Assembly: GCF_009734345.1 (NCBI RefSeq)
Contig: NZ_CP032551.1
Coordinates: 30,001 to 62,000, forward strand
Direction: 5' to 3'
Source of the DNA: Pseudidiomarina andamanensis
GTDB taxonomy: Bacteria > Pseudomonadota > Gammaproteobacteria > Enterobacterales > Alteromonadaceae
Length of the DNA: 32,000 bases
The number at the start of each line of letters is the position of its first letter. Position 1 is the stretch's first letter. Positions 1,719-29,448 of this stretch are shown here, in pieces. The position numbers were made by a program, and so were the translations under genes. Below the pieces are notes generated by a model, which was given only the letters and a program-made list of their open reading frames with translations, made no database searches and had not been told where the DNA came from.

Positions 1719-2924
1719 ATGTCATTTCCTGTGTTATTAAGCATTGTGGTGCTGCTGTGGCTGGTATTGGTTGCAGCAGGTGCTTTTGAAGCGCTCAGGC
1801 ACAAAATTCTACTGCGAAATATTCCCGTTCGGGTGCACGTGAATGGTACGCGCGGCAAAACCAGTGTCACGCGACTCATTGCTGCAGGTCTTCGTGGCGG
1901 CGGTAAGCGTGTTTGCGCGAAAACCACCGGCTCGGCGGCGGCCATGACCGACCCCGATGGTCGTGAATTCCCTATCTACCGCATTAGCGGTGCCAACATT
2001 ATTGAGCAAATGCGCATGCTAAAACGCATGGCAGTGCTGAAGCCGGAAATTGTGGTGGTGGAGTGTATGGCACTGCAGCCGCATTATCAGAGCCTCAGCG
2101 AGTTACGCATGGTGCGCTCAAACGTGGGCGTAATTACCAACGCGCGGGCTGACCATCTTGATGTGATGGGCCCCGGAGAACGTGATGTCGCATTGGCATT
2201 AGCCGGCAGTACGCCGGTGCGGGGGAATCTGTTCACCGCCGAGCGCGACTTGCTTGATGTGTTTGAAGACTCCTGCCAAGACCGTCGTAGCCAACTGCAC
2301 GGCGTCACCGAAGAGGAAGTGGCGGCGATACCTGAAGAAGTTCTCGCTGAATTTAAATACGCCGAACATGCCGAAAACGTCGCGTTAGCGTTGAAAGTAT
2401 GCGAGCACTTAGGCGTGAAACGCGAAGACGCATTGCAAGGCATGTTGTCATTAGAACCAGAAGCCGGTGCCATGCAGGTGCTTCACGTGCGTTATTTTGA
2501 ACGTGATTTGATTTTCGTGAACGCGTTTGCGGCAAATGATCCTGAATCCACCGGCCGTATTTGGGAGAACATGCTAGAGAAGCATGGCCGCGATCGGCAT
2601 TCCATTATGCTCATTAACTGTCGTGCTGACCGCCCCCATCGTTCGCAACAAATGGCAGAGGCTGTGGTGCAATGGACACCGGCCAGTAAAGTGGTGTTGA
2701 TGGGTTCAGGCTCATTTATTTTCGTGCGTGAGGCAATGAAGTTCGGTCTCGATCCCGACAAGTTATTAGTCATGGAAGGTGCTCATATGACGGAAATTAC
2801 TGAGGTATTGCTTGAGCAATCGCGAGGCAATGCCTTGATTGTGGGGATGTGTAACATTCATGGTGGCGGCGAAGAAGTCGCACGCTTTTTCCAAAACCGT
2901 GCAATTGATGAGGAAGACGTATGA
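1719..2924 (+). CDS. pgsB: Poly-gamma-glutamate synthase PgsB/CapB (Mur-ligase-like amide ligase)
   Basis: 401 aa. N-terminal TM helix, then P-loop NGTRGKTSVTRLIAAGL typical of PgsB/CapB. The stop overlaps the next start (ATGA at 2921-2924), and a CapC-like gene follows. Confidence 0.85.
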   Translation: MSFPVLLSIVVLLWLVLVAAGAFEALRHKILLRNIPVRVHVNGTRGKTSVTRLIAAGLRGGGKRVCAKTTGSAAAMTDPDGREFPIYRISGANIIEQMRMLKRMAVLKPEIVVVECMALQPHYQSLSELRMVRSNVGVITNARADHLDVMGPGERDVALALAGSTPVRGNLFTAERDLLDVFEDSCQDRRSQLHGVTEEEVAAIPEEVLAEFKYAEHAENVALALKVCEHLGVKREDALQGMLSLEPEAGAMQVLHVRYFERDLIFVNAFAANDPESTGRIWENMLEKHGRDRHSIMLINCRADRPHRSQQMAEAVVQWTPASKVVLMGSGSFIFVREAMKFGLDPDKLLVMEGAHMTEITEVLLEQSRGNALIVGMCNIHGGGEEVARFFQNRAIDEEDV

Positions 2925-3496
2925 TAGCGCTGAATATTCTTGCCGTTGCTATCGGCATCGGGTTGTTCTTTACGCTGCTACTCACCCAAACCTTGGGGTT
3001 AGCGGCTGGTGGTTTGGTTGTCCCTGGCTATGTGGCGTTGCAGTTAACAGATCCGCTGAGTTTGGCGCTAACTCTGGTGGCCGCATTCGTGACCTATTTA
3101 ATCGTCAAAATTGTTTCAAGTTTCGTGATTGTGTACGGTCGCCGTCAAACCATCATCATGATTCTAACTGGCTACATTATTGCTGGGTTGTTCGATATGT
3201 TTATTGGCAACTTAGTGAATTGGACTGACTTACAAATGATAGCCGGTGTTGATGAAGCTCAGGCGCAGGTACAGCCACTGGAATCGAGCCTAATGATGGC
3301 AGTGATGGAAAGTAGCATCATTGGCTACATCATTCCGGGTTTGATTGCCATTTGGTTTGAGCGTCAAGGCGTGTTGCAAACCTTATGTGGCCTGGCTGTA
3401 ACCGCTGTATTGGTACGCTTAGCACTGATTGCGATAATGCCCGAATCACTCAGTATGTATGAAGCAAGCCGCGCATTTCAGATGCCCGGCTGGTAA
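2921..3496 (+). CDS. pgsC: Poly-gamma-glutamate biosynthesis membrane protein PgsC/CapC
   Basis: 191 aa polytopic membrane protein. GGLVVPGYVAL motif as in CapC. Translationally coupled to pgsB. About 40 aa longer than the 149-aa Bacillus CapC because of a central hydrophilic insert (NWTDLQMIAGVDEAQAQVQPLESS). Confidence 0.8.
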   Translation: MIALNILAVAIGIGLFFTLLLTQTLGLAAGGLVVPGYVALQLTDPLSLALTLVAAFVTYLIVKIVSSFVIVYGRRQTIIMILTGYIIAGLFDMFIGNLVNWTDLQMIAGVDEAQAQVQPLESSLMMAVMESSIIGYIIPGLIAIWFERQGVLQTLCGLAVTAVLVRLALIAIMPESLSMYEASRAFQMPGW

Positions 3497-3523: not shown

Positions 3524-4675
3524 ATGAGTAAATTTACCAAGATTTATTGGCGCTCTTCAGGAGTGCCACTTTGGGGCCAAGTATTTCTGATTGCGCTGGC
3601 GGTGCTGGCATTTTTGCTGGCTGAAAACTTACGTCAACGTGACCCCGTGGTGGATAAGAATTACGCCACCATGGTGAACGCCGCAAAAATTATGCGCGAA
3701 GGTATGGATGTGTTGAAGCCATTGCGTGCCCAGCTTGCGCCGATTAATCCGGAGTTTGATCCGCAACGTTCTGGTTTAGTTGGGCTTGAGAACTCCATTA
3801 TTACCACCAACCAAGGTGGCCGCGAATCGAAGCAAACTACCGTGAACCCGAACTGGGCCGCAGTTGCCGTGAAATTGTTAGCAGATGCAGGGGTAGGCGA
3901 AGGTGATTTAGTGGCAGTGACCGTATCAGGCTCGTTTCCAGCGATGAACCTTGCGGTGTACTCGGCGTTAGAAGCGCTTGGTGCCGATGCGGTGATTATT
4001 GCGTCAGCATCGTCGTCGCAGTGGGGCGCCAACGTACCGGGTTTCGCATGGCTGGATATGGAGCGCGAATTGCGGCGCGCGGGTGTGATCTCGCTGAAGC
4101 CAATTTATGCTTCTCTAGGTGGTATTGAAGACCGTGGTATCGGTATTTCCGATGAGGGTATTGAGGCGTTGAAGCGCTCGATTGACCGCGCCGATATTAA
4201 CTTTATTGACCCTGCAAACTATCAAGAGGCAGTGGCTGACCGTATTGCGATTTTCCGTGAGTACTCTGCAGAGCGCAGTTACAAAGCTTTTGTGAACGTG
4301 GGTGGTGGCGCTACGATTGTAGGCCCTCCGGGCATTGATGACATGTTCAAATCAGGCTTACAAAAAGATGCACCAGCGCGAGCATTCGCGGTAGACACCG
4401 TAATGGGCTATTTCTTACAGGAAGAAATTCCGGGTATTCATTTCATCGGCATTAAGAACTTAGCGAATCGCTACGGCTTACCGATTGCACCGATTGAACC
4501 CGTGCCCGTTGGCAACGGCGGCATTTATTCCGCCACTGTGTACAACCGTTGGTTAGCAATTGCGCTTGGCCTTGGCCTATTCGGCATGACCTGGTTGATT
4601 GTGCGCTCAGCACGTATTACCAGCATCTTTAATCGCGCCGGCGGCCACGGCAAAATCACCAAACCAATGGTGTAG
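3524..4675 (+). CDS. Poly-gamma-glutamate system protein (third gene of pgsBC-type clusters, TIGR04332-like; not PgsA/CapA)
   Basis: 383 aa. AGGAG RBS at 3510-3514; N- and C-terminal TM helices. It sits immediately after pgsBC. It lacks the PgsA/CapA metallophosphatase-type motifs (GDIMMGR, GHHPH). The family assignment comes from context and memory, not from a search. Confidence 0.55.
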   Translation: MSKFTKIYWRSSGVPLWGQVFLIALAVLAFLLAENLRQRDPVVDKNYATMVNAAKIMREGMDVLKPLRAQLAPINPEFDPQRSGLVGLENSIITTNQGGRESKQTTVNPNWAAVAVKLLADAGVGEGDLVAVTVSGSFPAMNLAVYSALEALGADAVIIASASSSQWGANVPGFAWLDMERELRRAGVISLKPIYASLGGIEDRGIGISDEGIEALKRSIDRADINFIDPANYQEAVADRIAIFREYSAERSYKAFVNVGGGATIVGPPGIDDMFKSGLQKDAPARAFAVDTVMGYFLQEEIPGIHFIGIKNLANRYGLPIAPIEPVPVGNGGIYSATVYNRWLAIALGLGLFGMTWLIVRSARITSIFNRAGGHGKITKPMV

Positions 4676-4694
4676 CCCGGCGTTCTACGCCGGG
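4676..4694 (+). terminator. GC-rich hairpin CCCGGCG-TTCTA-CGCCGGG directly after the stop codon, preceded by GTAG (REP-like); no U-tract
   Basis: A 7-bp perfect GC stem read directly. The TAG stop is at 4673-4675. The hairpin is followed by the heptamer array, not by a T-run. Confidence 0.4.
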
Positions 4695-4704
4695 TAACGC
4701 GCAG

Positions 4705-4749
4705 CGTTGCTCGTTGTTCGTTGCTCGTTATTGGTTATTGGTTATTCGT
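4705..4749. repeat. Solo heptamer array: CGTTGCT CGTTGTT CGTTGCT CGTTATT GGTTATT GGTTATT CG
   Basis: Strict 7-nt phasing read directly. I found no complementary (CGAATAA)n partner arm nearby. Confidence 0.8.
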
Positions 4750-4891
4750 GGTGATATGCATGTAGAAGCATCGGAGGCATCCAGTTAGCCAATGAGCTGA
4801 AGCGGCAAGTGTAAGAGCAGCAGAGCATGGGTATGTAGAATCTATGCTTTGGGGCGTTTCATGAAAGGTATATGGGTGTGTGGTGTCTCTG

Positions 4892-4968
4892 AAAAAAGGC
4901 TGTTCAGTTGCAGCAAAAAAGTCGCATTTTGGGGTGCCTGATTTGTATCAAATTTGATGCAACTGAAC
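4892..4968 (-). terminator. Long-loop hairpin (11-bp stem GTTCAGTTGCA/TGCAACTGAAC, 45-nt loop) plus U6 on the minus strand, 45 nt downstream of the 5014..5595 gene
   Basis: Arms at 4902-4912 and 4958-4968 are perfect reverse complements. A-run 4892-4897 on the plus strand is a U-run on the minus-strand transcript. Confidence 0.4.
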
Positions 4969-5013
4969 ACTAAAATTTTTAGGGGGTATGCACACCTCTA
5001 TGATCTCCTGATA

Positions 5014-5595
5014 TCAGTCAATTAGGTTTTTTGCATAGATGCCGGTTACGTTGCCACTCTTGAGAAATATACGTAACGGTACCGCGCCGATGTCGCCGAT
5101 GGTGATTAAATAGGTTAACTCGGTGTCGGTTTCGACAGATGGTTGCCCTAGACGTTCTTTCAAACTCTTTGCGGTTGTACACAAGTATAATTGAAAATCG
5201 GAGAGGATATCGCAGTTTGAAATGAACACTCGTTTGACAAAACTACGTTGTTCATCAGTTGTTAATAATTCAATGGTTAAGCCATCATAAAATAACTGAC
5301 TTACTGTCATTTTATGTTCTGGCTGATGGCGGTTTGGTACTTGCTTTTCCGTTCGTTTCAGCGGTTCGCCGAGTACATTAATGATGTCAGCTTCGTTTTG
5401 TCCAAAGGATTTATATAAGCTATTTAATTCGTACGGCTGTGACCCTTCGTCATAGCGATGATGCGGCTGCTGCCAAATGCTGGTATCGGACGCTTGTGGA
5501 AACGTGAGTAGGTGATGATTGGTTGTTTCTGCATGAGAACTCGCGCTGAACAAACAACCTACTAAAAATATGACGTAATATTTTGCCTTCTGCAT
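5014..5595 (-). CDS. Hypothetical secreted protein or lipoprotein
   Basis: 193 aa. N-terminal signal sequence MQKAKYYVIFLVGCLFSASSHA, with a possible LVGC lipobox or cleavage after SHA. I recognise no family. Confidence 0.6.
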   Translation of the reverse strand: MQKAKYYVIFLVGCLFSASSHAETTNHHLLTFPQASDTSIWQQPHHRYDEGSQPYELNSLYKSFGQNEADIINVLGEPLKRTEKQVPNRHQPEHKMTVSQLFYDGLTIELLTTDEQRSFVKRVFISNCDILSDFQLYLCTTAKSLKERLGQPSVETDTELTYLITIGDIGAVPLRIFLKSGNVTGIYAKNLID

Positions 5596-5686
5596 GCGTA
5601 GTATCCCTTTGGTTTATTTTGTCTTTCCATATCTAGTCGTTGCAATATAGCTTAAATATCACTCGTTTTCTTGTTTGTTAGAGCAT

Positions 5687-5720
5687 AAAAAAATGGCCAG
5701 TCACCTAAATGACCAGCCAT
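5687..5720 (-). terminator. Rho-independent terminator of the porin gene
   Basis: On the minus-strand RNA, AUGGCUGGUCA-UUUAGG-UGACUGGCCAU forms an 11-bp stem with two G-U pairs, followed by U7 (plus-strand A-run 5687-5693). Confidence 0.7.
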
Positions 5721-5736
5721 TTTTGAGATGTATCTT

Positions 5737-5809
5737 CGTTTTTCGTTTTTCGTCCTTCGCTTTTCCGAATAACGAATAACCAATAACGAATAACGAATAA
5801 CGAATAACG
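5737..5809. repeat. Heptamer element in the porin 3' UTR: CGTTTTT CGTTTTT CGTCCTT CGCTTTT C | CGAATAA CGAATAA CCAATAA CGAATAA CGAATAA CGAATAA CG
   Basis: 7-nt phasing read directly. The T-rich arm (5737-5764) abuts the A-rich arm (5766-5809) with no loop. The element lies between the porin stop (5819) and its terminator. Confidence 0.8.
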
Positions 5810-5818
5810 CCTTCGCCT

Positions 5819-7012
5819 TTAGAACGTGTACATCGCCATGAACTGGAGGCGAGTCAAGTCACCATCGACGCCGGCGTCGTTTTCACGTTGCGCCAACGAT
5901 ACTTCGCCACCGAAGGTGAGCTTTTTGTCGACTGAGTGCATCACGTTGAAGCCAACGCGCTGAGTGAACTCAGTGGCTAGCGAGCCTTCGAGGTTGTCGG
6001 TGTTATCGGCCCAGCCGCGGCTGTAGACGATGTTTGAACGGGTTTTGTCGCTCCAATGATGACGATACGCGAAGGTAACGCCCATTACGTCGAGTGACTC
6101 GAGGCTGTTGTTCGGGTCAACATAAGCACCGTTGAAGGTGTTAAGCCCCAAGTAGCGGCCGATACCTGAGCCGGCGGTGAAGCTAGCACGGATGTCGTTG
6201 CCGTTATCAAATGCTAATTTACCGCCGAAGGTGACGCCGTAGCCGGTTGCTGTTTCGTCGCTACCGTCGCTATCGATGTCGTACGCTAATTGACGCACTA
6301 AGCCGGCAACACTGTAGCTGAAGTTGCCGCTCTTACCTTTATACTTTGCGGTAAAGTCAGGCATGATACCTTCGCTGGTGGCGGCACGAGATACCGCACC
6401 GGTACCCGCATCCACTAAGCTCACTGTGGTTTCTGGGTTCTCGATTGAGAAGCTCCATGCGCCGCTAGTGTAGCGAACTTGCGGTTGACGCATGAACACC
6501 ATACCGTCGGTTGCACCAACGAAATCGACTGATTCTGGCAAGATGCTTAAATCTTGGAAGTTTGACCAAGCTTGACCAATCAACCAGTTTTTGTATTGCA
6601 GGTAGGCTTGACGCAAGCGTGGCGCGTATGAGTTAGTGATACGCTCATCGCCACTTGGCACGGTCAAGAAGTCGATTTCGATACGACCGCTGATGTCTTC
6701 GCCATTATCGAGCTTTTGCTTTACGTCGAAAAAGAAACGCGATTGACGCGCATGGAAATCGGTTACGGCGTCGTCACCTTGACCGCCCACTGGCGTTAAG
6801 CTAGGAATATAGAACTGGCGACCGATGTTTTTGTCGGTACCCGAACCGGCTGAACCGTCACCATAGTCAGAGATCATGGCATCGAGTTTTACATAGCCAC
6901 TGAATGACCACTCTGGGCCCTCTGCAGCGTGAGCGTTTGTGGCTAAGCCGCCTGCTAAGCTGGCAAGTACTGCACTGGCAACTAGCGATTTGGTTAGTGT
7001 TTTTTGCAACAT
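5819..7012 (-). CDS. Outer-membrane beta-barrel porin
   Basis: 397 aa. Signal peptide ending NAHA-AE; alternating beta-strand pattern rich in G/Y/D; C-terminal ...FMAMYTF with a terminal Phe typical of OMPs; AGGAG RBS. Confidence 0.8.
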   Translation of the reverse strand: MLQKTLTKSLVASAVLASLAGGLATNAHAAEGPEWSFSGYVKLDAMISDYGDGSAGSGTDKNIGRQFYIPSLTPVGGQGDDAVTDFHARQSRFFFDVKQKLDNGEDISGRIEIDFLTVPSGDERITNSYAPRLRQAYLQYKNWLIGQAWSNFQDLSILPESVDFVGATDGMVFMRQPQVRYTSGAWSFSIENPETTVSLVDAGTGAVSRAATSEGIMPDFTAKYKGKSGNFSYSVAGLVRQLAYDIDSDGSDETATGYGVTFGGKLAFDNGNDIRASFTAGSGIGRYLGLNTFNGAYVDPNNSLESLDVMGVTFAYRHHWSDKTRSNIVYSRGWADNTDNLEGSLATEFTQRVGFNVMHSVDKKLTFGGEVSLAQRENDAGVDGDLTRLQFMAMYTF

Positions 7013-7035
7013 TGCTGTGCTCCTGTTTTGTAAGA

Positions 7036-7146
7036 CGTTGTTCGTTATTCGAAACTCGTTATTCGTTATTGGTTATTCGAAGTAAGACAAACACCATAAA
7101 TATTTAACTCGATGCACGAATAACGAATAACGAGTAACGAATAACG
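7036..7146. repeat. Heptamer-armed inverted repeat A: (CGTTATT-type)x6 7036-7079, loop, (CGAATAA-type)x4 7117-7146
   Basis: 30-nt arms 7043-7072 and 7117-7146 are complementary at 27/30 positions. The element starts 23 nt upstream of the porin start codon on the minus strand. Confidence 0.85.
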
Positions 7147-7247
7147 TTAGTGAGTAAGCTTTTAACATGCGGGCGTAATTATCAATCTAGACTATGGTCT
7201 AATGGCTTGATCGCGCGCAATAACTGAAGGTATACGCATCAAAAAAA

Positions 7248-7384
7248 CGTTATTCGATACTCGTTATTCGTTAATCGAAAAAGACGAGAAACCAAAGCTA
7301 GCGCACAAAGAAGTGAGCAAATCGTACTTCAATCTGCCGAGCGAGCTAAACTCACGAATAACCAATAACGAGTAACGAATAACG
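7248..7384. repeat. Heptamer-armed inverted repeat B: left arm 7248-7277, 77-nt loop, right arm 7355-7384
   Basis: Arms are complementary at 27/30 positions. The element ends 25 nt upstream of the acs ATG, just before the AGGAGG RBS. Confidence 0.85.
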
Positions 7385-7409
7385 ATTTAGCAGTTCAATA
7401 GGAGGTTTT

Positions 7410-9353
7410 ATGCAACATGACGTTTATAAAGTGCCGGCGGATGCGAAAGCGCGGGCATTGGTGAACAATGAACAATACCTGGCAATGTATGAGCAGAGCG
7501 TGAAAGATCCTGAGGGGTTTTGGCGTGAGCAGGGGCAGCGTATTAGCTGGTTTAGCCCGTACACGAAGGTGAAGAATACGAGTTTTGCGCCGGGTAATGT
7601 GAGCATAAAATGGTTTGAAGATGGCACCTTGAATGCGTGCTACAACTGCGTTGATCGACACTTGGCGGAGCGCGGTGATAAAACGGCGATTATTTGGGAA
7701 GGTGATGACCCAAGCGTCAGTGAAGAGATTAGCTATAAGCAACTGCATCACGAAGTGTCGCGCTTTGCCAATGGTTTGAAGAAGCTGGGCGTGCAAAAAG
7801 GCGACCGAGTGGCGATTTATATGCCGATGGTGCCTGAGGCGGCGTATGCCATGTTGGCGTGTGCGCGCATTGGTGCGGTGCACACGGTTATTTTTGGCGG
7901 CTTCTCGCCGAATGCCATTGCTGACCGTGTGAATGACTGCGGTGTGAAAGTGATTGTAACGGCTGACGAAGGCCGTCGTGGTGGCAAGAGTACACCACTG
8001 AAAGCAAATGTTGATGAAGCCCTACGTGGCGGTCGTTGCGCAACGGTTGAAAAGGTTGTGGTAGCGAAGGTTACGCACGGCGAAACCGAATGGGACGACA
8101 GCCGTGATGTGGCGTGGGATCAGTTGGTGAAAGATGTGCCTGCTGAGTGCCAGCCAGAAGTGATGAATGCAGAAGACCCGCTGTTTATTTTGTATACCTC
8201 AGGTTCAACCGGTAAACCGAAGGGCGTGTTGCACACCACTGGTGGTTACATGGTGTATGCGTCAATGACGCACGAGTTAGTATTTGATTACCACGAAGAC
8301 GATGTGTATTGGTGTGCGGCCGATGTGGGCTGGATTACAGGGCACAGTTATATTGTGTATGGTCCGTTAGCGAACGGCGCAACCACGCTGATTTTTGAAG
8401 GTCTGCCAACGTATCCGGGCGTGGGCCGTATTGGTGAAGTGGTTGATAAGCACAGTGTAAATATTCTGTACACCGCACCAACAGCGATTCGTGCGCTGAT
8501 GTCAAAAGGCACCGCCGCGGCAGAAACCTCAACGCGTAAATCGTTGCGTACCTTGGGTTCCGTCGGTGAGCCGATTAACCCTGAGGCTTGGGAGTGGTAT
8601 TACAAGGTGATTGGTGAGAGCCGTTGCCCGATTGTGGATACGTGGTGGCAAACCGAAACGGGCGGCATCATGATCACGCCATTACCGGGTGCGACTGATT
8701 TGAAACCAGGTTCAGCCACACGTCCATTCTTTGGTGTACAGCCAGCGTTGGTGGATGCTGATGGCAATGAGCTTGAGGGCGCGGTAGATGGCAACTTGGT
8801 GATTAAAGATTCGTGGCCAGGCCAAATGCGTACGCTTTGGGGTGACCACGAGCGCTTTGAGCAAACCTATTTCTCGGCGTATAAAAATATGTACTTCACT
8901 GGTGACGGTGCACGTCGTGATGAAGATGGCTTCTTCTGGATCACCGGCCGTGTCGATGACGTGTTGAACGTGTCGGGTCACCGTTTGGGTACGGCGGAAA
9001 TTGAATCGGTGCTGGTGGAGCATGAGAAGATTTCTGAAGCGGCAGTTGTGGGGTATCCGCACGACGTGAAGGGTCAGGGCATTTATGTGTATGTGTCGGC
9101 GATGGCTGGTACGGAGATTACCGACGAGCTGACCAAAGAGGTGCGTGACTGGGTACGCAAGGAATTAAGCCCAATTGCGACGCCTGACTTTATTCACTGG
9201 ACAGCTGATTTGCCGAAGACGCGTTCAGGTAAAATTATGCGCCGAATTTTGCGTAAAATTGCTGCCAACGAATTCGAGAATTTAGGCGATACCTCTACGC
9301 TTGCCGATCCGTCTGTGGTAGATTCGTTAATCGAAAACCGATTAAACAAATGA
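7410..9353 (+). CDS. acs: Acetyl-CoA synthetase (AMP-forming)
   Basis: 647 aa. Classic Acs sequence along the full length, including [11 protein letters not shown] (AMP-binding), WWQTETGG and the C-terminal [13 protein letters not shown] motif. AGGAGG RBS. Confidence 0.97.
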
Positions 9354-9360
9354 CGGTGGC

Positions 9361-10008
9361 ATGGCGAAATTTTTAATAGCAGATGATCATCCTTTGTTTC
9401 GCGAGGCCCTGCAGGGGGCACTCGCGAATCATTATCCTAAGCTTGAGTTGCGTGAAGCGGGCGATTTAGACGCGACGCTTGCGGCGCTTAACGAGGATGA
9501 CGATCTTGATTTACTTCTATTAGATTTGCACATGCCGGGCAGCGGCGATTTGTATGGGTTAATTCGTATTCGCGAAGATTATCCGTTACTTCCCGTTGCC
9601 ATTATTTCCGGCTCTGAAGACCCAGCCGTGGTTGGCAAATGCATTGGCTTCGGCGCGTTAGGTTTTATCCCGAAATCACTCTCGTCAGCAAAAATTGCTG
9701 AAGCGATCGATGTTATTTTACAAGGTGACACTTGGGTTCCGGCAGAGATGCGCGGACGCCTCGATAACATCACCGATGAAGATCAGGAACTTGCCAGAAA
9801 AGTCGCTGATCTTACCCCGCAACAATACCGCGTACTGTTCTTGCTTCACGAAGGCTTGTTAAACAAGCAAATTGCTTACCAATTAAACATTACTGAAGCG
9901 ACCGTCAAAGCTCACATCACGGCGATTTTCCGCAAACTTGGCGTGTACAGTCGTACTCAAGCGGTACTTTTGGCTGAGCGTCTGCAACTTGAACCGAATC
10001 CTACCTAA
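9361..10008 (+). CDS. crbR: NarL/FixJ (LuxR-type) response regulator, probable CrbR/ErdR orthologue
   Basis: 215 aa. Receiver domain (DDHPLF, LLLDLHMPG) plus a C-terminal LuxR HTH (LTPQQYRVLFLLHEGLLNKQIAYQLNITEATVKAHI). It lies 7 nt after acs, and a CrbS-type kinase gene lies 8.9 kb downstream. The orthologue assignment is by context. Confidence 0.65.
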   Translation: MAKFLIADDHPLFREALQGALANHYPKLELREAGDLDATLAALNEDDDLDLLLLDLHMPGSGDLYGLIRIREDYPLLPVAIISGSEDPAVVGKCIGFGALGFIPKSLSSAKIAEAIDVILQGDTWVPAEMRGRLDNITDEDQELARKVADLTPQQYRVLFLLHEGLLNKQIAYQLNITEATVKAHITAIFRKLGVYSRTQAVLLAERLQLEPNPT

Positions 10009-10126: not shown

Positions 10127-13100
10127 ATGACAACAACTAAAACTGCTCGTTGGTCGACATTAGCGATAGCGGTTGCGGCGGCAACTTCGGTATCGGCATT
10201 GACGGCTCAAGAGTTTCAAAAAGTAGATGCGGCCATCAAAGTGACCGAACGCCAAGCCAATCAGGTTAGCGAAAAGCACAAGATGACCATTGAAGAATTC
10301 GCGGCAGCACAGCAATCAACGCGTTTTTTAATTGAGTTTGTTGAGCCGGCTGTGGCTGTTTATAAAGGCGGCATCGCCGGTTTCGAGGCGACGTCTGCAA
10401 AGACGACTGGCGCAGAACGTTTAGATGTCAAATCGCGCAAAGTTCAAAGTTATGCCCAGTATCTTCAGCGTCGCCAACAAACCGTTTTAGCGGAAGTAGC
10501 GAAGCGCGTACCAGAATTGAAAACTCAGTCTCATTTGACCTTCACGTTTAACGGCGCAATTGTTGAATATAAGGGTACTGACTTAAAAGAAAAATTACGC
10601 GGTATTCCAGGTGTGAAAGCAGTACATAACGATCATGTTGTTTATACCGATATGGATGCCTCGAATGACTTGATTAACTCACCAGAAGTTTGGCAACTGC
10701 TTGGTGGACAAAGTGCTGCAGGTAAAGGCGTTAACGTAGCGGTAATTGACACCGGTATTGATTTTGCTCATCCGATGTTTGCTGATAACGGTCATGAACC
10801 AGCAACGACAGCTGCAACCGATGATTATTGCGCATTAAATGCTGGAGTCTGTAACGACAAGATAGCCGTTGCACGGTACTACCCAGCACCTTCTACGGTG
10901 CATCCGAATGAGTACATGGATTCACCGCAGGATATGAACGGCCACGGTTCGCACGTAGCAGGTACATCGACGGGGAATCCTGTTAGTACCACTTTCAACG
11001 GTGTTGCCTTAAATTTCTCAGGTGTTGCACCGGGTGCCAATCTGTTTGTTTACAAAGGCTTATGGAATACCGTAGATGGTCGTGGCTCGGGATTGACATT
11101 AAGCCTCGCTGAGGCTTTGGAAGATGCCGCAGTCGATGGCGCTGACGTGATCAACAATTCATGGGGCGGTGGTGCTGGAAGTAGCCCTGCTAACAGCTAT
11201 TACACACCAATCATGAAATCGCTCGATGAAATGGGTGTGGTTACTGTTACTTCTGCAGGTAACTCCGGTCCGGGCGAGCAAACCGTGGGTTGCCCGGGTT
11301 GTATTGAAGAAACCATTACCGTTGCAAGTACGCGTACGGGTCGTGTTTTTGCTAATCCAGTTGACGTGGATGGTTTTGATGCCGTGTTATCGGTTCAAGG
11401 TTCTGGGAATTTCACAATCACGACAGCTATCACAGCGCCTTTAATGCCTGCTTTGCAAGTTGATGCGGCAAACTTCGAAGGCTGTAATGCTTTTCCTGCG
11501 GACGCATTCGCGGGCCATATTGCGATGATATCGCGCGGTACGTGTAGCTTCGAAGTTAAAGCAAACAATGCGCAAGCAGCTGGTGCTACCGCGCTTATTG
11601 TCTACAACAACGCGGGAGCGGCGGCCGGCATGGCTATGGCTGCGGCTACATTGCCAAGCGTTATGATTGGCCAAACCGATGGCGAAGCTATTTTAGCTGC
11701 TTGGACTAATGGGCTTAGCGCTACTATAAATCCGACTGATGCCATCATTGATGAAAGCAGCGTCGATGTGTTGTCTGCCTTTAGTTCACGCGGCCCGAAC
11801 GGCGATTCGAGTATGTTGAAGCCGGAAATTGCGGCGCCGGGGCACGATATTTTGTCGGCAGCGCCAGGGCAAAGCTACATGGCAATTAGCGGTACTTCAA
11901 TGGCAAGCCCGCATGTGGCAGGTGCAGCGGCGTTGTTGTTGGCTCACAACCCTGATTTACTGCCGCAACAGGTGAAGTCAATTTTAATGACGTCGTCGGT
12001 TGATGGGGTGCGCAAAGAAGATGGCGTGACACCGGCCGATCCGTTTGATGTGGGTGCTGGTCGTCTTGAACTTCCACGTGCGTTTAACACGGGTATTACC
12101 TTTGATGTGGCATCATTTGCCAACCCAATGTGCTTAAACGTTTGTAACTTCACACGTCAAATCACCAACCTCGATGATGCCGCGGGTGAATGGCAAGTCG
12201 CGGTAGCGTTCACTAATCCAAATGTCACTGCAACTTACCCAGAAACGTTAACTTTAGAAGCTAACGGTAGCGCAGAGTTCGCGCTGGAGGTTGTTGGTCG
12301 TCATGCCGATGAAGGTTGGCAATTTGGTACGGTTACACTTACCGATGCCAGTGGCACTTTTGCTGACGCTCGGTTACCAATCGCTGTATATACCGCAATG
12401 TCAGAAAACTCCGGTGCTATGAGTAGCGGTGTCACAGCGGGCGAAGTTGTGGCAAATGCACCAATGACACTGACCATGCTGAGTGCGCTTGGTGATACCG
12501 GTGAAGATGTGACGATTACGGCGCAATTCCCTAGTGATGAGAACTTTGTAGTAGACGAAGATTCAGTGGTTGTCACTGAAACCTTAAGCTCAACCACTAG
12601 CTCAACGCTGGATAGCACCGCGCGCACTTATACGTGGACCGGTACGCAAACTGATAATCCGGCGGTTGTGACACTGCAACCAGCAACAACCTTCCCATGG
12701 GTTGGCTTTGACTTCGATACAATTGGTGGTGCAACTTACACTGAATGTGCGAGTGGTTGTGATGAAGTAGCTTTCACACTGGATATTACTGGCCTTGCTA
12801 CGTGGGAATATGAGGGGACGCAATACACAAAACTCACCTTCTGGGAAAACGGTATTATTCAGCTTGGCGAACAAACCGTAGCGACCACATGGCAGTTGCA
12901 AGGTCTGCCAAATAGCGCAGAACCGAATAACGTATTGGCGCCATTGTGGGCAGACTTTGAAACTGAGGCTGGCGAAGGCGAACTGCGTTATGACATCGTT
13001 TTCGACGGCGTCGATAACTGGTTAGTTATTGAGTGGTATCGCGTGCAAGAGTGGGGCGATACAACGGGTGCTACCCATACGTTCAATATTTGGTTCCGCT

Positions 13101-14311
13101 TAAATGGCAGCGATGCGTATTTCAACTATATCGATGTTAACCAAACAGCGAACCTCTACGGTGTGATTGGTCTTGAGAACGCAGACGGTACGGTTGGCAG
13201 TATGGTTTATGCAGCAGGCGGCTACTATCCGGCGGATGGTGAGGCGTTTGAGATTGGCTTGACCAAAGGCGAATCAGCCTCTGTGCAAATTGATCTGGAC
13301 GCTACCGTGACAACCTTTGGTGATATATCGAGCGCAACCGGCAGTGGTAAACATAGCAACGCGATGACTATCGACTTAACTGATGCCGTGGGTGCGCCGC
13401 AGCGTGATTTGTTGACGCTGTTAAACATTACCAGCGGTACTGTGTCGTACGACGCTATTCTACCCATGCTGATTAAACCGGACGGCACCATGACGGTTGA
13501 AGTGACTGCGCAACCTGAGCACGGTACGGTGAGCTTTGATGGCATGATCGCAACCTATACTCCGGATTCAGGTTATGTCGGTAGCGACAGCTTCAGTTAT
13601 CGTGTAGTGGATGCTGCTGGCGCAACGTCAACGGAAAACACCGTATCTGTTAGCGTAACTAATACGGCGCCAACGGTAACGGCTACCGCACCAGAAACGG
13701 CTGAAAACGGTGATACTGTGGTGTTAGATGCGTCATCGGCGGCGGATGCTGAAGGCGATGCATTAACCTATAGCTGGGTACAAACCGCGGGGCCTGAGAT
13801 TGAGCTCAGTGGTGCTGATGCAGCACAAGCATCGTTCACTGCACCGTTGTTTGAGGAAAACGACACAGACTTCGGGTTTACCGTGACTGTGAGCGATGGC
13901 ATTGAATCGGTTACCAGTGATGTGGTTATGACTGTGTTGGCCGATCCGAACACTGCGCCGGTTATTAATATCAGTGCACCTAGTTCAGCGTCAGCTGACA
14001 CCATAGTGCGTCTCGATGCATCAGGCACAACCGATGCTGAAGACGACGTTTTAACCTTTAACTGGCAGTTTGCTGGCGGTACCACTGTCTCGTTGAACAA
14101 TGCGACTTCCGCGGTTGCAACGTTCACCGTGCCACGTGTATTTGAGCAGGCACAAGCGAACTTTGTGGTCACTGTTTCTGACGGTCGTGCGACCAGTCAA
14201 CAAATGGTAACTGTGACGTTTGAGCCGGAAGAAAAATCAAGTGGTTCAATGCCTTGGTTATTCACCTTGCTCGCGTTGCCATTGGTTTGGCTACGCCGTC
14301 GTAAAGGTTAA
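10127..14311 (+). CDS. Secreted multidomain S8 subtilisin-like serine protease (I9-like propeptide, PA-domain insert, NIDO-like module, Ig/cadherin-like domain, 2 PKD-like repeats, GlyGly-CTERM-like tail)
   Basis: 1394 aa. Signal peptide; catalytic motifs VAVIDTGID (Asp), HGSHVAGT (His), NNSWG and GTSMASPHVAG (Ser); PA-type insert (ISRGTCSFEVKANNAQAAGATALIVYNN) between His and Ser; C-terminus SSGSMPWLFTLLALPLVWLRRRKG. Confidence 0.9.
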   Translation: MTTTKTARWSTLAIAVAAATSVSALTAQEFQKVDAAIKVTERQANQVSEKHKMTIEEFAAAQQSTRFLIEFVEPAVAVYKGGIAGFEATSAKTTGAERLDVKSRKVQSYAQYLQRRQQTVLAEVAKRVPELKTQSHLTFTFNGAIVEYKGTDLKEKLRGIPGVKAVHNDHVVYTDMDASNDLINSPEVWQLLGGQSAAGKGVNVAVIDTGIDFAHPMFADNGHEPATTAATDDYCALNAGVCNDKIAVARYYPAPSTVHPNEYMDSPQDMNGHGSHVAGTSTGNPVSTTFNGVALNFSGVAPGANLFVYKGLWNTVDGRGSGLTLSLAEALEDAAVDGADVINNSWGGGAGSSPANSYYTPIMKSLDEMGVVTVTSAGNSGPGEQTVGCPGCIEETITVASTRTGRVFANPVDVDGFDAVLSVQGSGNFTITTAITAPLMPALQVDAANFEGCNAFPADAFAGHIAMISRGTCSFEVKANNAQAAGATALIVYNNAGAAAGMAMAAATLPSVMIGQTDGEAILAAWTNGLSATINPTDAIIDESSVDVLSAFSSRGPNGDSSMLKPEIAAPGHDILSAAPGQSYMAISGTSMASPHVAGAAALLLAHNPDLLPQQVKSILMTSSVDGVRKEDGVTPADPFDVGAGRLELPRAFNTGITFDVASFANPMCLNVCNFTRQITNLDDAAGEWQVAVAFTNPNVTATYPETLTLEANGSAEFALEVVGRHADEGWQFGTVTLTDASGTFADARLPIAVYTAMSENSGAMSSGVTAGEVVANAPMTLTMLSALGDTGEDVTITAQFPSDENFVVDEDSVVVTETLSSTTSSTLDSTARTYTWTGTQTDNPAVVTLQPATTFPWVGFDFDTIGGATYTECASGCDEVAFTLDITGLATWEYEGTQYTKLTFWENGIIQLGEQTVATTWQLQGLPNSAEPNNVLAPLWADFETEAGEGELRYDIVFDGVDNWLVIEWYRVQEWGDTTGATHTFNIWFRLNGSDAYFNYIDVNQTANLYGVIGLENADGTVGSMVYAAGGYYPADGEAFEIGLTKGESASVQIDLDATVTTFGDISSATGSGKHSNAMTIDLTDAVGAPQRDLLTLLNITSGTVSYDAILPMLIKPDGTMTVEVTAQPEHGTVSFDGMIATYTPDSGYVGSDSFSYRVVDAAGATSTENTVSVSVTNTAPTVTATAPETAENGDTVVLDASSAADAEGDALTYSWVQTAGPEIELSGADAAQASFTAPLFEENDTDFGFTVTVSDGIESVTSDVVMTVLADPNTAPVINISAPSSASADTIVRLDASGTTDAEDDVLTFNWQFAGGTTVSLNNATSAVATFTVPRVFEQAQANFVVTVSDGRATSQQMVTVTFEPEEKSSGSMPWLFTLLALPLVWLRRRKG

Positions 14312-14355: not shown

Positions 14356-14390
14356 AAAAACGGCGATAGTATGAACTATTGCCGTTTTTT
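14356..14390 (+). terminator. Rho-independent terminator after protease 1 (ACGGCGATAG-TATGAA-CTATTGCCGT plus T6)
   Basis: 9-bp stem 14361-14369/14376-14384 with one G-U pair. The flanking A5/T5 can extend the stem. T-run 14385-14390. The terminator ends 19 nt before the protease 2 ATG. Confidence 0.75.
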
Positions 14391-14408
14391 ATGAGTATAA
14401 AAGTAACT

Positions 14409-17400
14409 ATGAAAAGACTACAGACAACACTAGCAGTAACAATTGTGGCTTTGCTCACGAGCGCAGCAACAAGTACCGTTTATGCGGCCGACATTCAGGT
14501 GAAAGTGAATGAGCGGACCATGACTGCGCCACAGCGAAAAATTCCGCAACCGGCTGAGCAGCGAGTAGGCGTCGCTGCGCCGAAGCGTTATTTGATTCAG
14601 TTGGAAGAGCCAAGTGTCGCGACTTATAAAGGCGGCATTGCAGGCTATGCGGCAACGTCAGCTGCGGTCACTGATAGCAAGCGTTTGCGTCTTGGCTCTC
14701 AAGCCGTATCGGATTATTCAGGATACGTGCAAAAACGGCAGAAAGAAATTTTTAACACCATCACACAACAGGTGCCTTCGGTTGCACTGAAAAAGCACAT
14801 GAAGTTGCTACTGAATGCGATGGTGGTGGAGTACAACGGTGATGATTTAGCTCAACAGTTGGCGGGTATGCCTGGTATAAAAGGCGTGTATGCTGATCGT
14901 GAAGTTTACGTACAAACGGATACGTCAAACGCCCTAATTGAGGCTCCAGCCGTATGGCAACAGTTAGGCGGGCAAGCGCAAGCTGGTGCAGGCGTTAAAA
15001 TTGCTATTTTGGATACGGGAATTGACCCTGACCATATCATGTTTGAAGATAACGGCCATACGCGACCTGATTTAGGGATCACTGACGATTACTGTGCCAG
15101 TACCCCTTCGTTTTGTAACGATAAATTGATTGTTGCTCGTTATTTTTTGCCAGCGGGATTTGATTTACATCCGGATGAGTTTGCTAATTCGCCAGAAGAT
15201 TTAGATGGCCATGGTACACACGTTGCTGGTACCGCTGCGGGTAATCCTGTAAGTACAACTTTTAATGGGGTTTCGGTGAACTTCTCTGGCGTAGCTCCGG
15301 GCGCTAATTTAATGATTTATAAAGCCTTGTGGGTAAATGCCGATGGCAGTACGACGGGGTCATCAATCAGTTTGGCTGAAGCGTTAGAGGCGGCAGCAAA
15401 TGATGGTGCAGATGTCATTAATAACTCGTGGGGCAGCCTAGATAACGGTGTCGCGCCCTATGAGGCAGATATAGTTCGCGCTATTGACGCGATGGGGATT
15501 GTGAATGTGGCAGCTGCCGGCAATGATGGTCCTGCAGAGAGTAGCATGGGCTGCCCAGCCTGTATTGATGAGATGTTGGCGGTTGCTAATACGCAAACGG
15601 GTCGTCGTTTTGCGGTGACAATGACGCATAGTGATTATAGCAATGCAATTCCGGTGCTGATTGGACAAGGGGATTTCACTATTTCCACAGCAATTACTGG
15701 TGCTTTTCGAACTGCGAAGCGCGACGCGCCGTCAAATTCACTAGCCTGTAACAGTTTTAGTGCTGGCTTATTTACCAACGAGATTGTACTGGTTGAGCGC
15801 GGTACTTGTACGTTTGAACAAAAAGCTAATAATTTGCAGGCTGCCGGTGCCCGAGCGATGGTGTTGTATAACAACGTCGCAGGCGCCATTAGCATGGACA
15901 TGGGGACGGCGACGTTGCCAAGCGTGTCACTTGATCAAGCCACCGGACAGCAGTTAGAAAGCGGTTGGGTAGCGGGAGAGCAAGTGACGATCAATCCGCC
16001 GACACGAGTGATAGATGAATCGCTTCAAGATCGTTTGGCGAGCTCGAGTTCACGCGGGCCGAATCGCGATAGCACCATACTGAAGCCAGAAGTTGCCGCG
16101 CCAGGTACTGATATTCTCTCGGCGTATCCAGGTAATCAATTGGCACTATTAAGTGGTACTTCGATGGCAAGTCCGCATGTAGCTGGTGCCGCTGCATTAT
16201 TACGAGATCTAAAACCTAGCTGGACGAATAACCAAATTAAATCGGTACTGATGACGTCTGCAAACGCGAATATCAGGCAGAGCGATAATGACGCGCAAGC
16301 AACGCCTCATCAAGTTGGCGCTGGTCGTATTGATCTCGCTGCAGCAATGGCATCTGGCATTAGCTTTGACCGCGCTTCGCTAAACAACAATGCGTGCATT
16401 GGCATGTGTGACTTTGACCGTGTCGTCACTAACTTAACTTCGGCAACGCAAACATGGAATATCACCGCAAGTTTTGATGATCCGAACATTACGGCGACTT
16501 TACCGGCGACAATTTCACTTGCCGCAAATGAGAGCAAAACCTTGTCGGTTACGATCAACACAGCTTTTGCCGATGAAGGCTGGCAATTTGGCGCCTTAAC
16601 GTTAACGTCTGATTCAGGTAATTACTCGTCGGCTCGATTACCGATTGCGGTTTATACGTCTCTTTCAGATGACTCGAGAATTATTTCTGGTGCTATCGCC
16701 TCCGGTGGCGCTGTTGCTGGAGAGGCGATGACGCTGCAGCTACGCGGCGGACTAGGATTTACAGATGGGGCGACCGAATTTTCGGTAGCGCTGCCAACGA
16801 GTGCAGGAATTTCTATTGATTACAACAACATTGGATTGCAGTTAACGCGCAGCACGCAAACTGCGTTTGATGTGAACGAAACAACGGGGATTTTGGTTTG
16901 GCAAGGCGACCAAAATGATGCCCCCGATTCAGCTAACATTGGTGCAGTTTCTGGTTTTGCTTATGCTGGGATGTCACTGGCTGATATTGCGCTAACGCAA
17001 GATATTAGTATTTCGAGTGTGTGCAGTGAAGGCTGTGATGATTTAGTCGCTGAAGTTGAACTAGAAGGCGATGGCGCAACTTGGAGTTTTGACGGTTTTG
17101 ACCATCATGTGTTCTCGATGTGGAGTAACGGTGTGGTTGAGCTTGGTGAAAGCCGAGCGTTATTTACAGCCAGTGCGGCAATGTTACCCAATGAAAACGA
17201 ACCAAACGGCATTGTCGCGCCGTTTTGGACCGACTTGGAATTTGTGAATGGCGATGGCGAAATGAATTACGCCATTGTGACCGAAGGCACCGATACATAC
17301 TTGGTACTTGAGTGGGAAAATGCACGGAGCTGGGTTGCTTCGGGCGCCACTGACAATGGTGTACGTTACACCTTTAATGTGTGGTTTAAATTAGGAACCA

Positions 17401-22407: not shown

Positions 22408-22508
22408 CGTTATTCGTTGTTCGTTATTCGTTATTCGAAAAAGAAAAGCCAACAACGTTGTTTGTGTTTTGTGTTTACCGATTAACGAATAACGAATAAC
22501 GAATAACG
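22408..22508. repeat. Heptamer-armed inverted repeat C: left arm 22408-22437, 41-nt loop, right arm 22479-22508
   Basis: CGTTATT CGTTGTT CGTTATT CGTTATT CG faces CGATTAA CGAATAA CGAATAA CGAATAA CG, complementary at 28/30. The loop contains the 12-bp palindrome AACAACGTTGTT (22451-22462). Confidence 0.85.
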
Positions 22509-29341: not shown

Positions 29342-29368
29342 AAAGCCCGGCTTCACGCCGGGCTTTTT
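29342..29368 (+). terminator. Rho-independent terminator after the symporter (AAAGCCCGGC-TTCAC-GCCGGGCTTT, T5)
   Basis: 10-bp stem read directly. The T-run 29364-29368 runs straight into the heptamer array. Confidence 0.8.
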
Positions 29369-29448
29369 CGTTGTTCGTTATTCGTTAGTGGTTATTCGTT
29401 TTGATTTTTTGGCTTTTTCGAGTAACGATTAACGAATAACTAGTAACG
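29369..29448. repeat. Heptamer-armed inverted repeat D: left arm 29369-29398, 20-nt T-rich loop, right arm 29419-29448
   Basis: CGTTGTT CGTTATT CGTTAGT GGTTATT CG faces CGAGTAA CGATTAA CGAATAA CTAGTAA CG, complementary at 24/30. The element ends 15 nt before the ATG of the DUF294 gene. Confidence 0.8.

Follow-up and report, generated by a model that had tools for sequence, protein, structure and literature searches.

Heptamer-armed hairpins before the porin and acs genes of Pseudidiomarina andamanensis as possible counterparts of IVS-like PF05635 cassettes

Introduction

What are the two hairpins that stand directly before the porin and acetyl-CoA synthetase (acs) genes of the gammaproteobacterium Pseudidiomarina andamanensis, and why are their arms built of tandem heptamers? 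The hairpins, here called elements A and B, lie in a stretch of 32,000 nucleotides (positions 30,001 to 62,000 of contig NZ_CP032551.1, assembly GCF_009734345.1), referred to below as the window. A preliminary description, made from the sequence alone, had taken them as the type locus of a window-wide repeat family, and had listed mRNA stabilisers, insulators, regulator-binding arrays and relics of mobile elements as possible explanations. Tandem heptamers pose a more general puzzle, as their preference for period 7, their patchy distribution over phyla and their clustering before start codons have no explaining mechanism. Another puzzle is the PF05635 (S23p) family, which is very common and structurally solved, yet has no known function.

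Here we report that heptamer arms of the same kind bracket PF05635 genes in relatives of P. andamanensis and in distant bacteria. Based on these comparisons, our best explanation is that A and B might be counterparts, devoid of an open reading frame (ORF), of cassettes resembling the intervening sequences (IVSs) of rRNA; they would be transcribed in untranslated regions (UTRs) and cut as duplexes by RNase III, altering the leaders of both genes. We hold this explanation tentatively, as it falls somewhat short of being probable. If the association with PF05635 holds, each of the two puzzles gives a handle on the other, and the link is directly testable.

Elements A and B

The porin-acs intergenic region and its flanking genes are laid out as follows.

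5819-7012, minus strand: DcaP-family porin gene
7036-7079: left arm of element A, six CGTTATT-type heptamers plus CG (CGTTGTT CGTTATT CGAAACT CGTTATT CGTTATT GGTTATT CG)
7080-7116: loop of element A, 37 nt, unique
7117-7146: right arm of element A, four units, (CGAATAA)2 CGAGTAA CGAATAA CG
about 7155-7235: conserved core between A and B, with the invariant 34-mer TTATCAATCTAGACTATGGTCTAATGGCTTGATC that includes the palindrome TAGAC-N4-GTCTA; not part of the repeat family
7248-7277: left arm of element B, four heptamers plus CG
7278-7354: loop of element B, 77 nt, unique
7355-7384: right arm of element B, four heptamers plus CG
7410-9353, plus strand: acetyl-CoA synthetase gene (acs)

The sequence reads as the preliminary description had it, with two discrete heptamer-armed hairpins at 7036-7146 and 7248-7384. 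Tandem Repeats Finder reports all four arms as period-7 arrays (4.3-6.3 copies), and period 7 accounts for 14 of its 18 tandem-repeat rows across the whole window. Allowing a single mismatch, the two-unit pattern CGWWWWTCGWWWWTCG is found 29 times across the window, whereas 0.21 occurrences would be expected. Single heptamer arms are not self-complementary; within each element, the two arms pair at 27 of 30 positions (in A in the register 7043-7072 versus 7117-7146). The distances to the genes are likewise as described: the porin start codon is 23 nt from element A and the acs ATG 25 nt beyond the end of B, with the Shine-Dalgarno sequences AGGAG and AGGAGG 10-15 nt past the arms. Predicted RNA folds of A and B, as well as of the hairpins at 22408 and 29369, are far more stable than those of shuffled sequence on both strands (z from -5 to -11). 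Altogether, there are five inverted array pairs in the window (A, B and those starting at 22408, 29369 and 5737) and one solo array (4705-4749). Recurrence of the architecture at 22408-22508, 29369-29448, 5737-5809 and 4705-4749, as proposed earlier, is thus real, and all of these copies are intergenic.

Elements A and B are themselves related. There is 94% complementarity between the right arm of A and the left arm of B, across the 97-nt core that separates the elements, and the corresponding arms are near-copies (31/32 identical positions for the right arms, 25/26 for the left ones). The single odd unit of each arm had been interpreted as compensated within the element. The pairing part of this interpretation stands, but, the arms being near-copies, the odd unit shared by A and B also reflects their common descent.

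Five of the hairpin loops in the window start at the T-rich arm with CGAAAAAG or a near variant (7078-7085, 7276-7283 and 22436-22443; on the minus strand at 29419 and 5766). This loop start lends polarity to otherwise symmetric hairpins. It may be a decayed CGAAAAA unit, similar to units of the array in the porin 3' UTR.

PF05635 genes bracketed by heptamer arms

A metagenome-assembled genome with a porin 85% identical to that of the window (L046) carries a 117-aa gene (4881-5234) between rpsT and murJ. To its left stands (CGTTATT)4 and to its right (CGAATAA)7, so close to the gene that the array encodes the last codons and the TAA stop. Its product belongs to PF05635, '23S rRNA intervening sequence protein' (Pfam E = 1e-33), also TIGR02436, 'four helix bundle protein', and is homologous to Xanthomonas XCC0516, the protein of PDB entry 2GSC (E = 1e-27 for the PDB match). 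P. atlantica (L168) has a PF05635 gene at the same rpsT/murJ site, with 6-7 units in the left arm and (CGAATAA)8 in the right one. The predicted minimum-free-energy fold pairs both arms around the PF05635 ORF. Homologues from other organisms are bracketed by other units: a 49%-identical one by (GTGAYGA)4 and (TCRTCAC)3-4, and one from Kaiserbacteria by TCGTAAT/ATTACGA units.

To quantify the association, we used a profile of 22 homologues, which gave 33 loci on viral contigs of IMG/VR and 27 distinct PF05635 genes with full flanks. Periodicity was assessed with a 21-nt comparison window, 28 nt being too strict for four-unit arrays. A period-7 array was found within 130 nt of the start or stop of 16 of the 27 genes; for control segments taken from these contigs, the figure was 4 of 180, and lag 7 was the sole enriched lag among 4-12. 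The stricter combination of an inverted repeat in the flanks with period 7 held for 10/27 PF05635 genes and for 0/23 neighbouring ORFs. Of the 1272 ORFs in array-rich loci, 21 were positive, and PF05635 genes make up 12 of them. The unit at these genes is particular to each lineage, for example, GGCAGAA, AGGGTGT, TAGTCTG, AGAGTGG or GGGAATT. As a separate observation, many PF05635 homologues are on contigs of only 500-2000 nt, which is expected if flanking repeats break metagenome assemblies.

PF05635 matches on plasmids are almost all cyanobacterial, and 7-8 of 8 genes on cyanobacterial plasmids are bracketed by arrays, mostly of heptamers; of two further plasmid genes, one has an array on a single side and one has none. 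Several of the cyanobacterial genes are inside operons (L215, L217, L219, L216), each with its own flanking heptamer arrays; they separate cas6 from cas4, cas10 from cmr3 and the ribonucleotide reductase beta-subunit gene from that of the alpha subunit. On the Nostoc edaphicum plasmid pNe_5, the AGGGAGT unit that flanks a PF05635 gene is also found in an ORF-less hairpin of 4+4 units 4 kb away and in a solo array. In Xanthomonas, a 28-nt array of four GGGAATC units (repeat #15 in the supplement of Rehm et al.) overlaps the start codon of XCC0516.

In Coxiella burnetii, the IVS consists of a PF05635 (S23p) ORF in a 28-bp stem that is cut by RNase III; it contains GACAGAT tandem heptamers, whose number varies between strains, and is regarded as selfish DNA of unknown mobility (PMC4990558). 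IVSs with S23p are also found in Leptospira, Haemophilus and Xanthomonas. The window elements resemble IVSs in having terminal inverted repeats that form a stem of about 28 bp (window arms are 30 nt long and paired at 27/30 positions). In contrast to the Coxiella IVS, which resides in helix 45 of 23S rRNA, they lack an ORF and occupy spacers and putative mRNA UTRs. All window copies lie between protein-coding genes rather than in helix 25 or 45 of 23S rRNA, and the ORF-bearing Pseudidiomarina relative, between rpsT and murJ, is likewise outside rRNA. Our literature search joining IVS, S23p or four-helix-bundle proteins with heptamers returned the Coxiella IVS paper only. The association between heptamers and PF05635 is thus absent from the literature searched and is the part worth following up.

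The inverted arms of the dispersed, intergenic elements might also suggest a classical miniature inverted-repeat transposable element (MITE), the more so as the unit order GATATTA GCTATTG GATATTA GATATTA is common to two genomes (L107, L120). We nevertheless consider a classical MITE origin very unlikely. The flanks of the five window hairpins contain no target-site duplication or direct repeat, and there is no transposase nearby. No loop is common to the window hairpins, and the loops of A and B have no copy in any locus compared. Moreover, the number of units per arm varies, unlike in true terminal inverted repeats. What partly supports the earlier idea of MITE-like relics is a counterpart of a different kind, namely the ORF-bearing PF05635 element with the same arms in relatives.

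Arm covariation and constraints on the unit

If complementarity of the arms matters, changes in one arm should be matched in the other. An alignment of 14 hairpins with four units each has 90% of its cells paired, and both sides have changed in 13 of 30 pairs; the register aligned was the best-pairing one, a choice that favours pairing. This number was reached in 0 of 500 shuffles, and sliding the partner by 1-3 columns left 1-4 pairs. Covariation of the arms, as implied by the preliminary description, is thus supported. In a relative from the TARA data, the actP-DUF294 hairpin has arms that agree with one another at 0.87; their agreement with orthologous arms from other species is only 0.60-0.70.

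Positions G2, T4 and T7, together with their partners, are invariant in every unit of the 14 hairpins, while positions 1, 3, 5 and 6 vary with compensation. The consensus unit is NGNTRTT, CGTTATT being its window form. In other words, there is a 7-nt-periodic constraint on unit identity that is not explained by pairing alone. Arm length is also restricted: 7 of the 11 window arrays have exactly four units plus CG (30 nt), and four-unit arms occur in relatives, metagenomes, Nostoc and Xanthomonas as well.

Turnover of the elements at orthologous sites

Orthologous gaps could be compared at several distances. By its porin and ActP, the window falls into the Idiomarinaceae, next to Pseudidiomarina; an exact look-up of its acs protein gave no record. 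P. halophila has an ActP with 93% identity to that of the window, and porins 96, 88, 85 and 72% identical come from uncultured relatives. In the porin-acs gap, all sequence from the core to either ribosome-binding site (RBS) varies among relatives. Even in the closest one (L160, porin 96%), only the right arm of A is identical; the left arm has four units instead of six, and both the loop and element B differ. At 85% porin identity, L120 has hairpins in both positions made of other heptamers (GATATTA/GCTATTG). The gap of L122 contains unrelated repeats, one of them a classical repetitive extragenic palindromic (REP) sequence, and that of L124 direct arrays only. Of the two arrays in the porin 3' UTR, one has 6 units in the window and 5 in L160, the other about 3 and about 9, respectively. 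Unit numbers thus differ between close relatives (6/4, 6/5 and ~3/~9 for the window and L160).

Other sites behave similarly. The hairpin at 22408-22508 is absent from the corresponding gap of L161 and L163. In the actP-DUF294 gap, the structure that follows the canonical terminator is different in each genome compared: 3+4 units of mixed sequence in P. halophila, 4+4 units of CGCTGTT/AACAGCG in the TARA relative, 8+8 units of GGTTATT in P. taiwanensis, a REP pair in P. homiensis and no element in P. salinarum, of which 21.7 kb contain no hairpin. Since the structures differ or vanish at orthologous sites, the elements are both dispensable and fast-evolving.

The core between A and B presents the opposite picture. 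About 80 nt of it are nearly invariant in three relatives (alignment with L120 and L122; the core is also present in L160 and L094), and its palindrome TAGAC-N4-GTCTA is nested inside ATCAA-N24-TTGAT. The divergent porin/acs promoters and an operator are likely to be located in this core. These observations bear on the earlier idea that the arrays bind CrbR, a regulator of the NarL/LuxR family, and thereby control acs, the porin gene and actP. NarL-family proteins recognise heptamers, and crbR-like, crbS-like, acs and actP genes are all present in the window. However, at 85-96% porin identity the arrays differ or are replaced, while the palindromic core between them stays invariant. The same arrays are also found at unrelated genes such as rpsT and murJ, in contigs of 37-62% G+C and in many phyla. 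We therefore regard CrbR binding to the arrays as extremely improbable; the core would make a better candidate for a CrbR operator.

Several additional types of arrays were noticed in these loci. Pseudidiomarina has longer composite palindromes, in which outer CGTTATT/AATAACG arrays surround GC-richer inner arms, CGTGCGCTTCGCTGTTCG ... CGAACAGCGAAGCG (L096 3112-3230 and 6480-6570; L120 9790-9920; L046 6806-6900; L160 1-60; L023, L051 and L115), and many seemingly single arrays in this genus are outer arms of such palindromes. Other heptamers also form perfect or nearly perfect arrays in relatives. In L120, (AGACGTT)7.6 at 11485-11537 ends just before a start codon, and in L124, (GAAAAGT/GGAAAAG)7 at 9887-9934 lies beside a CGAATAA-type array upstream of acs. 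The arrays of L120 and L124 indicate that several unrelated heptamers coexist in the lineage.

Distribution and relation to described repeats

Among the matches listed by our searches, a limit that applies to all genome-sample counts in this section, three exact CGTTATT units are found in Saprospiraceae, Kordia and other Bacteroidota, cyanobacteria, candidate-phyla-radiation bacteria, five Pseudidiomarina species and an Idiomarina. In other phyla, the arrays are mostly single and direct. CGTTATT hairpins are present on 21 metagenome contigs of 37-62% G+C and often end right before an RBS. Of the 146 arrays in the genome sample, 137 are located outside long ORFs. For those with an ORF start no more than 150 nt away, the sense strand is the A-rich one (AATAACG) in 45 cases versus 15, and 27 of the 60 distances are 30 nt or less; ORF calling was crude here, so that the opposite orientation may be undercounted. 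The CGTTATT arm is the 5' one in every discrete window hairpin. In the genome sample, it is 5' in about 5-7 pairs and the opposite orientation occurs in 3, and a fixed polarity of inverted pairs was accordingly rejected.

The CGTTATT family appears to be undescribed. Rfam has no match in the window at gathering thresholds, below which only plant miRNA-precursor hairpins are hit, and a literature search for the CGTTATT array as a literal sequence found no papers. The architecture, on the other hand, is not novel, contrary to the preliminary description, which had recognised no gammaproteobacterial family with heptamer arrays as hairpin arms. Genomes of the gammaproteobacteria Xanthomonas campestris and X. 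axonopodis each contain 70-75 convergent pairs of GGGAATC arrays capable of forming stem-loops (Rehm et al. 2015, PMC4692102). Like the window elements, these are intergenic tandem heptamers, typically of about four units (28 nt). Related genomes differ in the length and sequence of these arrays but share their type, single or paired, and most of the arrays are transcribed (PMC4692102). The window has the corresponding heptamer arrays of at least three units, five opposite-strand pairs, the intergenic location and the variability. The difference lies in the unit: that of Xanthomonas is G-rich and was studied as a G-quadruplex former, whereas CGTTATT is AT-rich and forms no G-quadruplex. The elements are thus a new sequence family of an already described architecture. 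Rehm et al. (PMC4692102) made no connection between the GGGAATC repeats and S23p or IVS genes.

Beggiatoaceae, Cyanobacteria and Bacteroidetes have direct repeats of another heptamer, TAACTGA, mostly a few nucleotides ahead of start codons (MacGregor 2015, PMC4679880). Like the cyanobacterial short tandemly repeated repetitive (STRR) sequences, they are intergenic, have 2-6 units in one orientation and are patchily distributed across phyla. CGTTATT arrays share with them the proximity to starts and the orientation bias. In contrast, TAACTGA arrays are almost all direct, with one inverted case reported, and differ in unit sequence. MacGregor 2015 (PMC4679880) makes no mention of S23p.

Possible role in mRNA leaders and the neutral alternative

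How might these observations fit together? A and B would be two copies of a lineage-wide set of non-coding palindromes, each consisting of about four NGNTRTT units that face their complement across a variable loop. In IVS-like cassettes, the same kind of heptamer stem would enclose a PF05635 (S23p/four-helix-bundle) gene. Both A and B are probably in 5' UTRs, because they are located between the sole conserved non-repeat sequence of the gap and the RBSs; the 23-25 nt left from hairpin to start codon are too short for a promoter. They would thus be transcribed within the porin and acs leaders, and the pair in the porin 3' UTR and the hairpin of the actP-DUF294 spacer may be transcribed likewise. 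RNase III would then cut the RNA duplex of 28-30 bp, as it does in rRNA IVSs and in the 5' UTR of hmw1A, and the processing of the leader might alter mRNA stability or translation. At the DNA level, whole units might be gained or lost by slippage, with complementarity kept either by arm-to-arm copying or by selection on pairing. A stem made of tandem units can pair anew after a 7-nt shift of register and would therefore tolerate such gain and loss, which may explain the persistence of these stems despite fast evolution. The comparisons show the architecture, the family with its quick turnover, the covariation of the arms and the association with PF05635 genes; from them we infer that the hairpins are transcribed, that RNase III cleaves them, that expression is affected and that one of the two forms, with or without the ORF, descends from the other. 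A role at the UTR or mRNA level is plausible. For this locus, the practical point is that a hypervariable duplex of 30 bp is probably present in both the porin and the acs leader, so that expression of the two genes could differ among near-identical strains.

A functional precedent is the hmw1A gene of Haemophilus influenzae, where (ATCTTTC)n in the 5' UTR forms a long hairpin, cutting by RNase III raises expression (Rapun-Araiz et al. 2025, PMC12721329), and RNase III is also needed for the change in repeat number (PMC12721329). As proposed for the porin leader of the window, a heptamer hairpin in the 5' UTR is found just upstream of a gene for a surface-exposed protein, and repeat number varies, in our case between close relatives (window versus L160). 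Unlike the window elements, hmw1A has only one heptamer arm, with a G-rich region as its partner and at least 10-11 repeats, and is a single phase-variation locus rather than a dispersed family.

A number of points weigh against A and B being counterparts of PF05635 cassettes with an effect on leaders. PF05635 has no match anywhere in the window, and the window hairpin loops, only 20-77 nt long, contain no remnant of a PF05635 ORF. Among loci selected for arrays, a PF05635 gene is present in only 2 of 159 fetched stretches (L046 and L072) by single-sequence tblastn, a profile search giving the same answer. Most arrays therefore have no ORF; the association is one-way, and cassettes could have settled into already existing hairpins. 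The covariation, apart from the choice of register, fits selection on pairing and recent arm-to-arm copying alike and cannot separate the two. A promoter scan of 6900-7500 found no match to the sigma-70 consensus. Finally, some orthologous sites are empty or have a classical REP, which fits dispensable selfish DNA equally well.

The main rival is a neutral one. Heptamers made by slippage might have acquired inverted partners by template switching or fold-back copying, the products being functionless, tied to no gene and retained in the few intergenic places where they are harmless. The commonest long simple-sequence repeats in prokaryotes are reported to be heptanucleotides, for which slippage has been proposed (Mrazek 2007, as cited in PMC4679880). 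Such a process accounts for turnover: unit numbers differ already at 96% porin identity (the three counts given above), loops are unique, orthologous sites are empty or have other elements, and arrays in other phyla are mostly single and direct. It does not account for arm lengths that cluster at four units instead of drifting, for arms that stay complementary after the unit sequence has changed, or for the invariance of G2, T4 and T7 across 14 hairpins. The strand bias upstream of genes and the strong, period-specific association with PF05635 are also left unexplained. We see neutral slippage with fold-back copying as a possible but rather unlikely explanation.

It is attractive to extend the comparison with cassettes further. 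The heptamer hairpins, and perhaps much of the STRR, GGGAATC, TAACTGA and CGTTATT repeats, might be the non-autonomous footprint or the recognition sites of a single class of selfish PF05635 cassettes. Their insertion sites would be transcribed spacers, UTRs, operons and rRNA; RNase III would free them from host transcripts by cutting the heptamer stems, and the protein (S23p, which is related to Avd of diversity-generating retroelements) would act on its own arms. In this broad form the proposal is a speculation that we ourselves find distinctly doubtful.

Other repeats and terminators in the window

The remaining repeat copies and the terminators next to them are the following.

4672-4694, plus strand: classical REP, GTAG followed by the palindrome CCCGGCG-TTCTA-CGCCGGG; a separate repeat family in the same genome
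4705-4749, plus strand: solo six-unit array, CGTTGCT ... GGTTATT, 10 nt past the classical REP
5688-5722, minus strand: porin intrinsic terminator with a GC-containing stem and then T7, located downstream of the arrays at 5737-5809
5737-5764/5766-5809: array pair of the porin 3' UTR, with (CGTTATT)6 against 3-4 units of CGAARAA/CGAARRR type when read on the mRNA strand
22408-22437/22479-22508: 4+4-unit hairpin between the divergent genes for a CrbS-like kinase and a TonB-dependent receptor, fold z about -10.9
29342-29366: canonical intrinsic terminator of actP
29369-29398/29419-29448: 4+4-unit hairpin between the actP intrinsic terminator and the RBS of the DUF294 gene

The pair at 5737-5809 pairs more weakly than the others (fold z about -3). 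The porin terminator was revealed by folding, a terminator scan of 5560-5840 having missed it.

Being stable on both strands and located between genes, the hairpins could in principle act as transcription terminators or as insulators between transcription units. This seems highly improbable. The stems are AT-rich and are not followed by a U-tract, and the terminator scan calls no heptamer stem. Canonical terminators are present directly beside two of the hairpins (29342-29366 and 5688-5722). In addition, A and B lie between the promoter region and the start codons, where termination would silence the genes.

The presence of a REP in the window raises another possibility, that the hairpins belong with REP sequences, bacterial interspersed mosaic elements (BIMEs) or the REP doublets known as REPINs, mobilised by a REP-associated tyrosine transposase (RAYT) and serving to stabilise mRNA 3' ends or as gyrase or integration host factor (IHF) sites. 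The likeness is considerable: both kinds are abundant intergenic palindromes with quick turnover between relatives, true REPs occupy the same gaps in relatives, and one heptamer pair is in the porin 3' UTR. However, each REP is itself palindromic, has a conserved GTAG-type head and depends on a RAYT, whereas the heptamer arms lack GTAG and are not self-complementary, and the genome has a GTAG-type REP separate from them (4672-4694). A scan of window ORFs revealed no gene of the RAYT type. REP membership is thus scarcely to be expected.

The classical REP family itself (GTAG plus CCCGNNG-TTCTA-CNNCGGG) recurs at L094 2119-2206, L115 308-330, L165 11761-11783 and in three copies in L122. A REP often directly abuts a heptamer array (window 4705, L094 2205, L115 248-283), and a REP and a heptamer hairpin can fill the same intergenic slot in different species.

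Neighbouring genes

Besides the porin and acs genes, the window encodes a LuxR-type (crbR-like) response regulator, two subtilases, the CrbS-like kinase, the TonB-dependent receptor, a DUF4212 protein together with ActP, and the DUF294 protein. The subtilase genes (10127-14311 and 14379-18332) are tandem paralogues for large, secreted proteins having Peptidase_S8 with PA, Big_9 and PKD domains. The pair is located between the response-regulator and kinase genes, and relatives have a single copy. Near the porin region, Mur-ligase-like and CapC-like genes at 1719-3496 suggest a poly-gamma-glutamate synthesis cluster.

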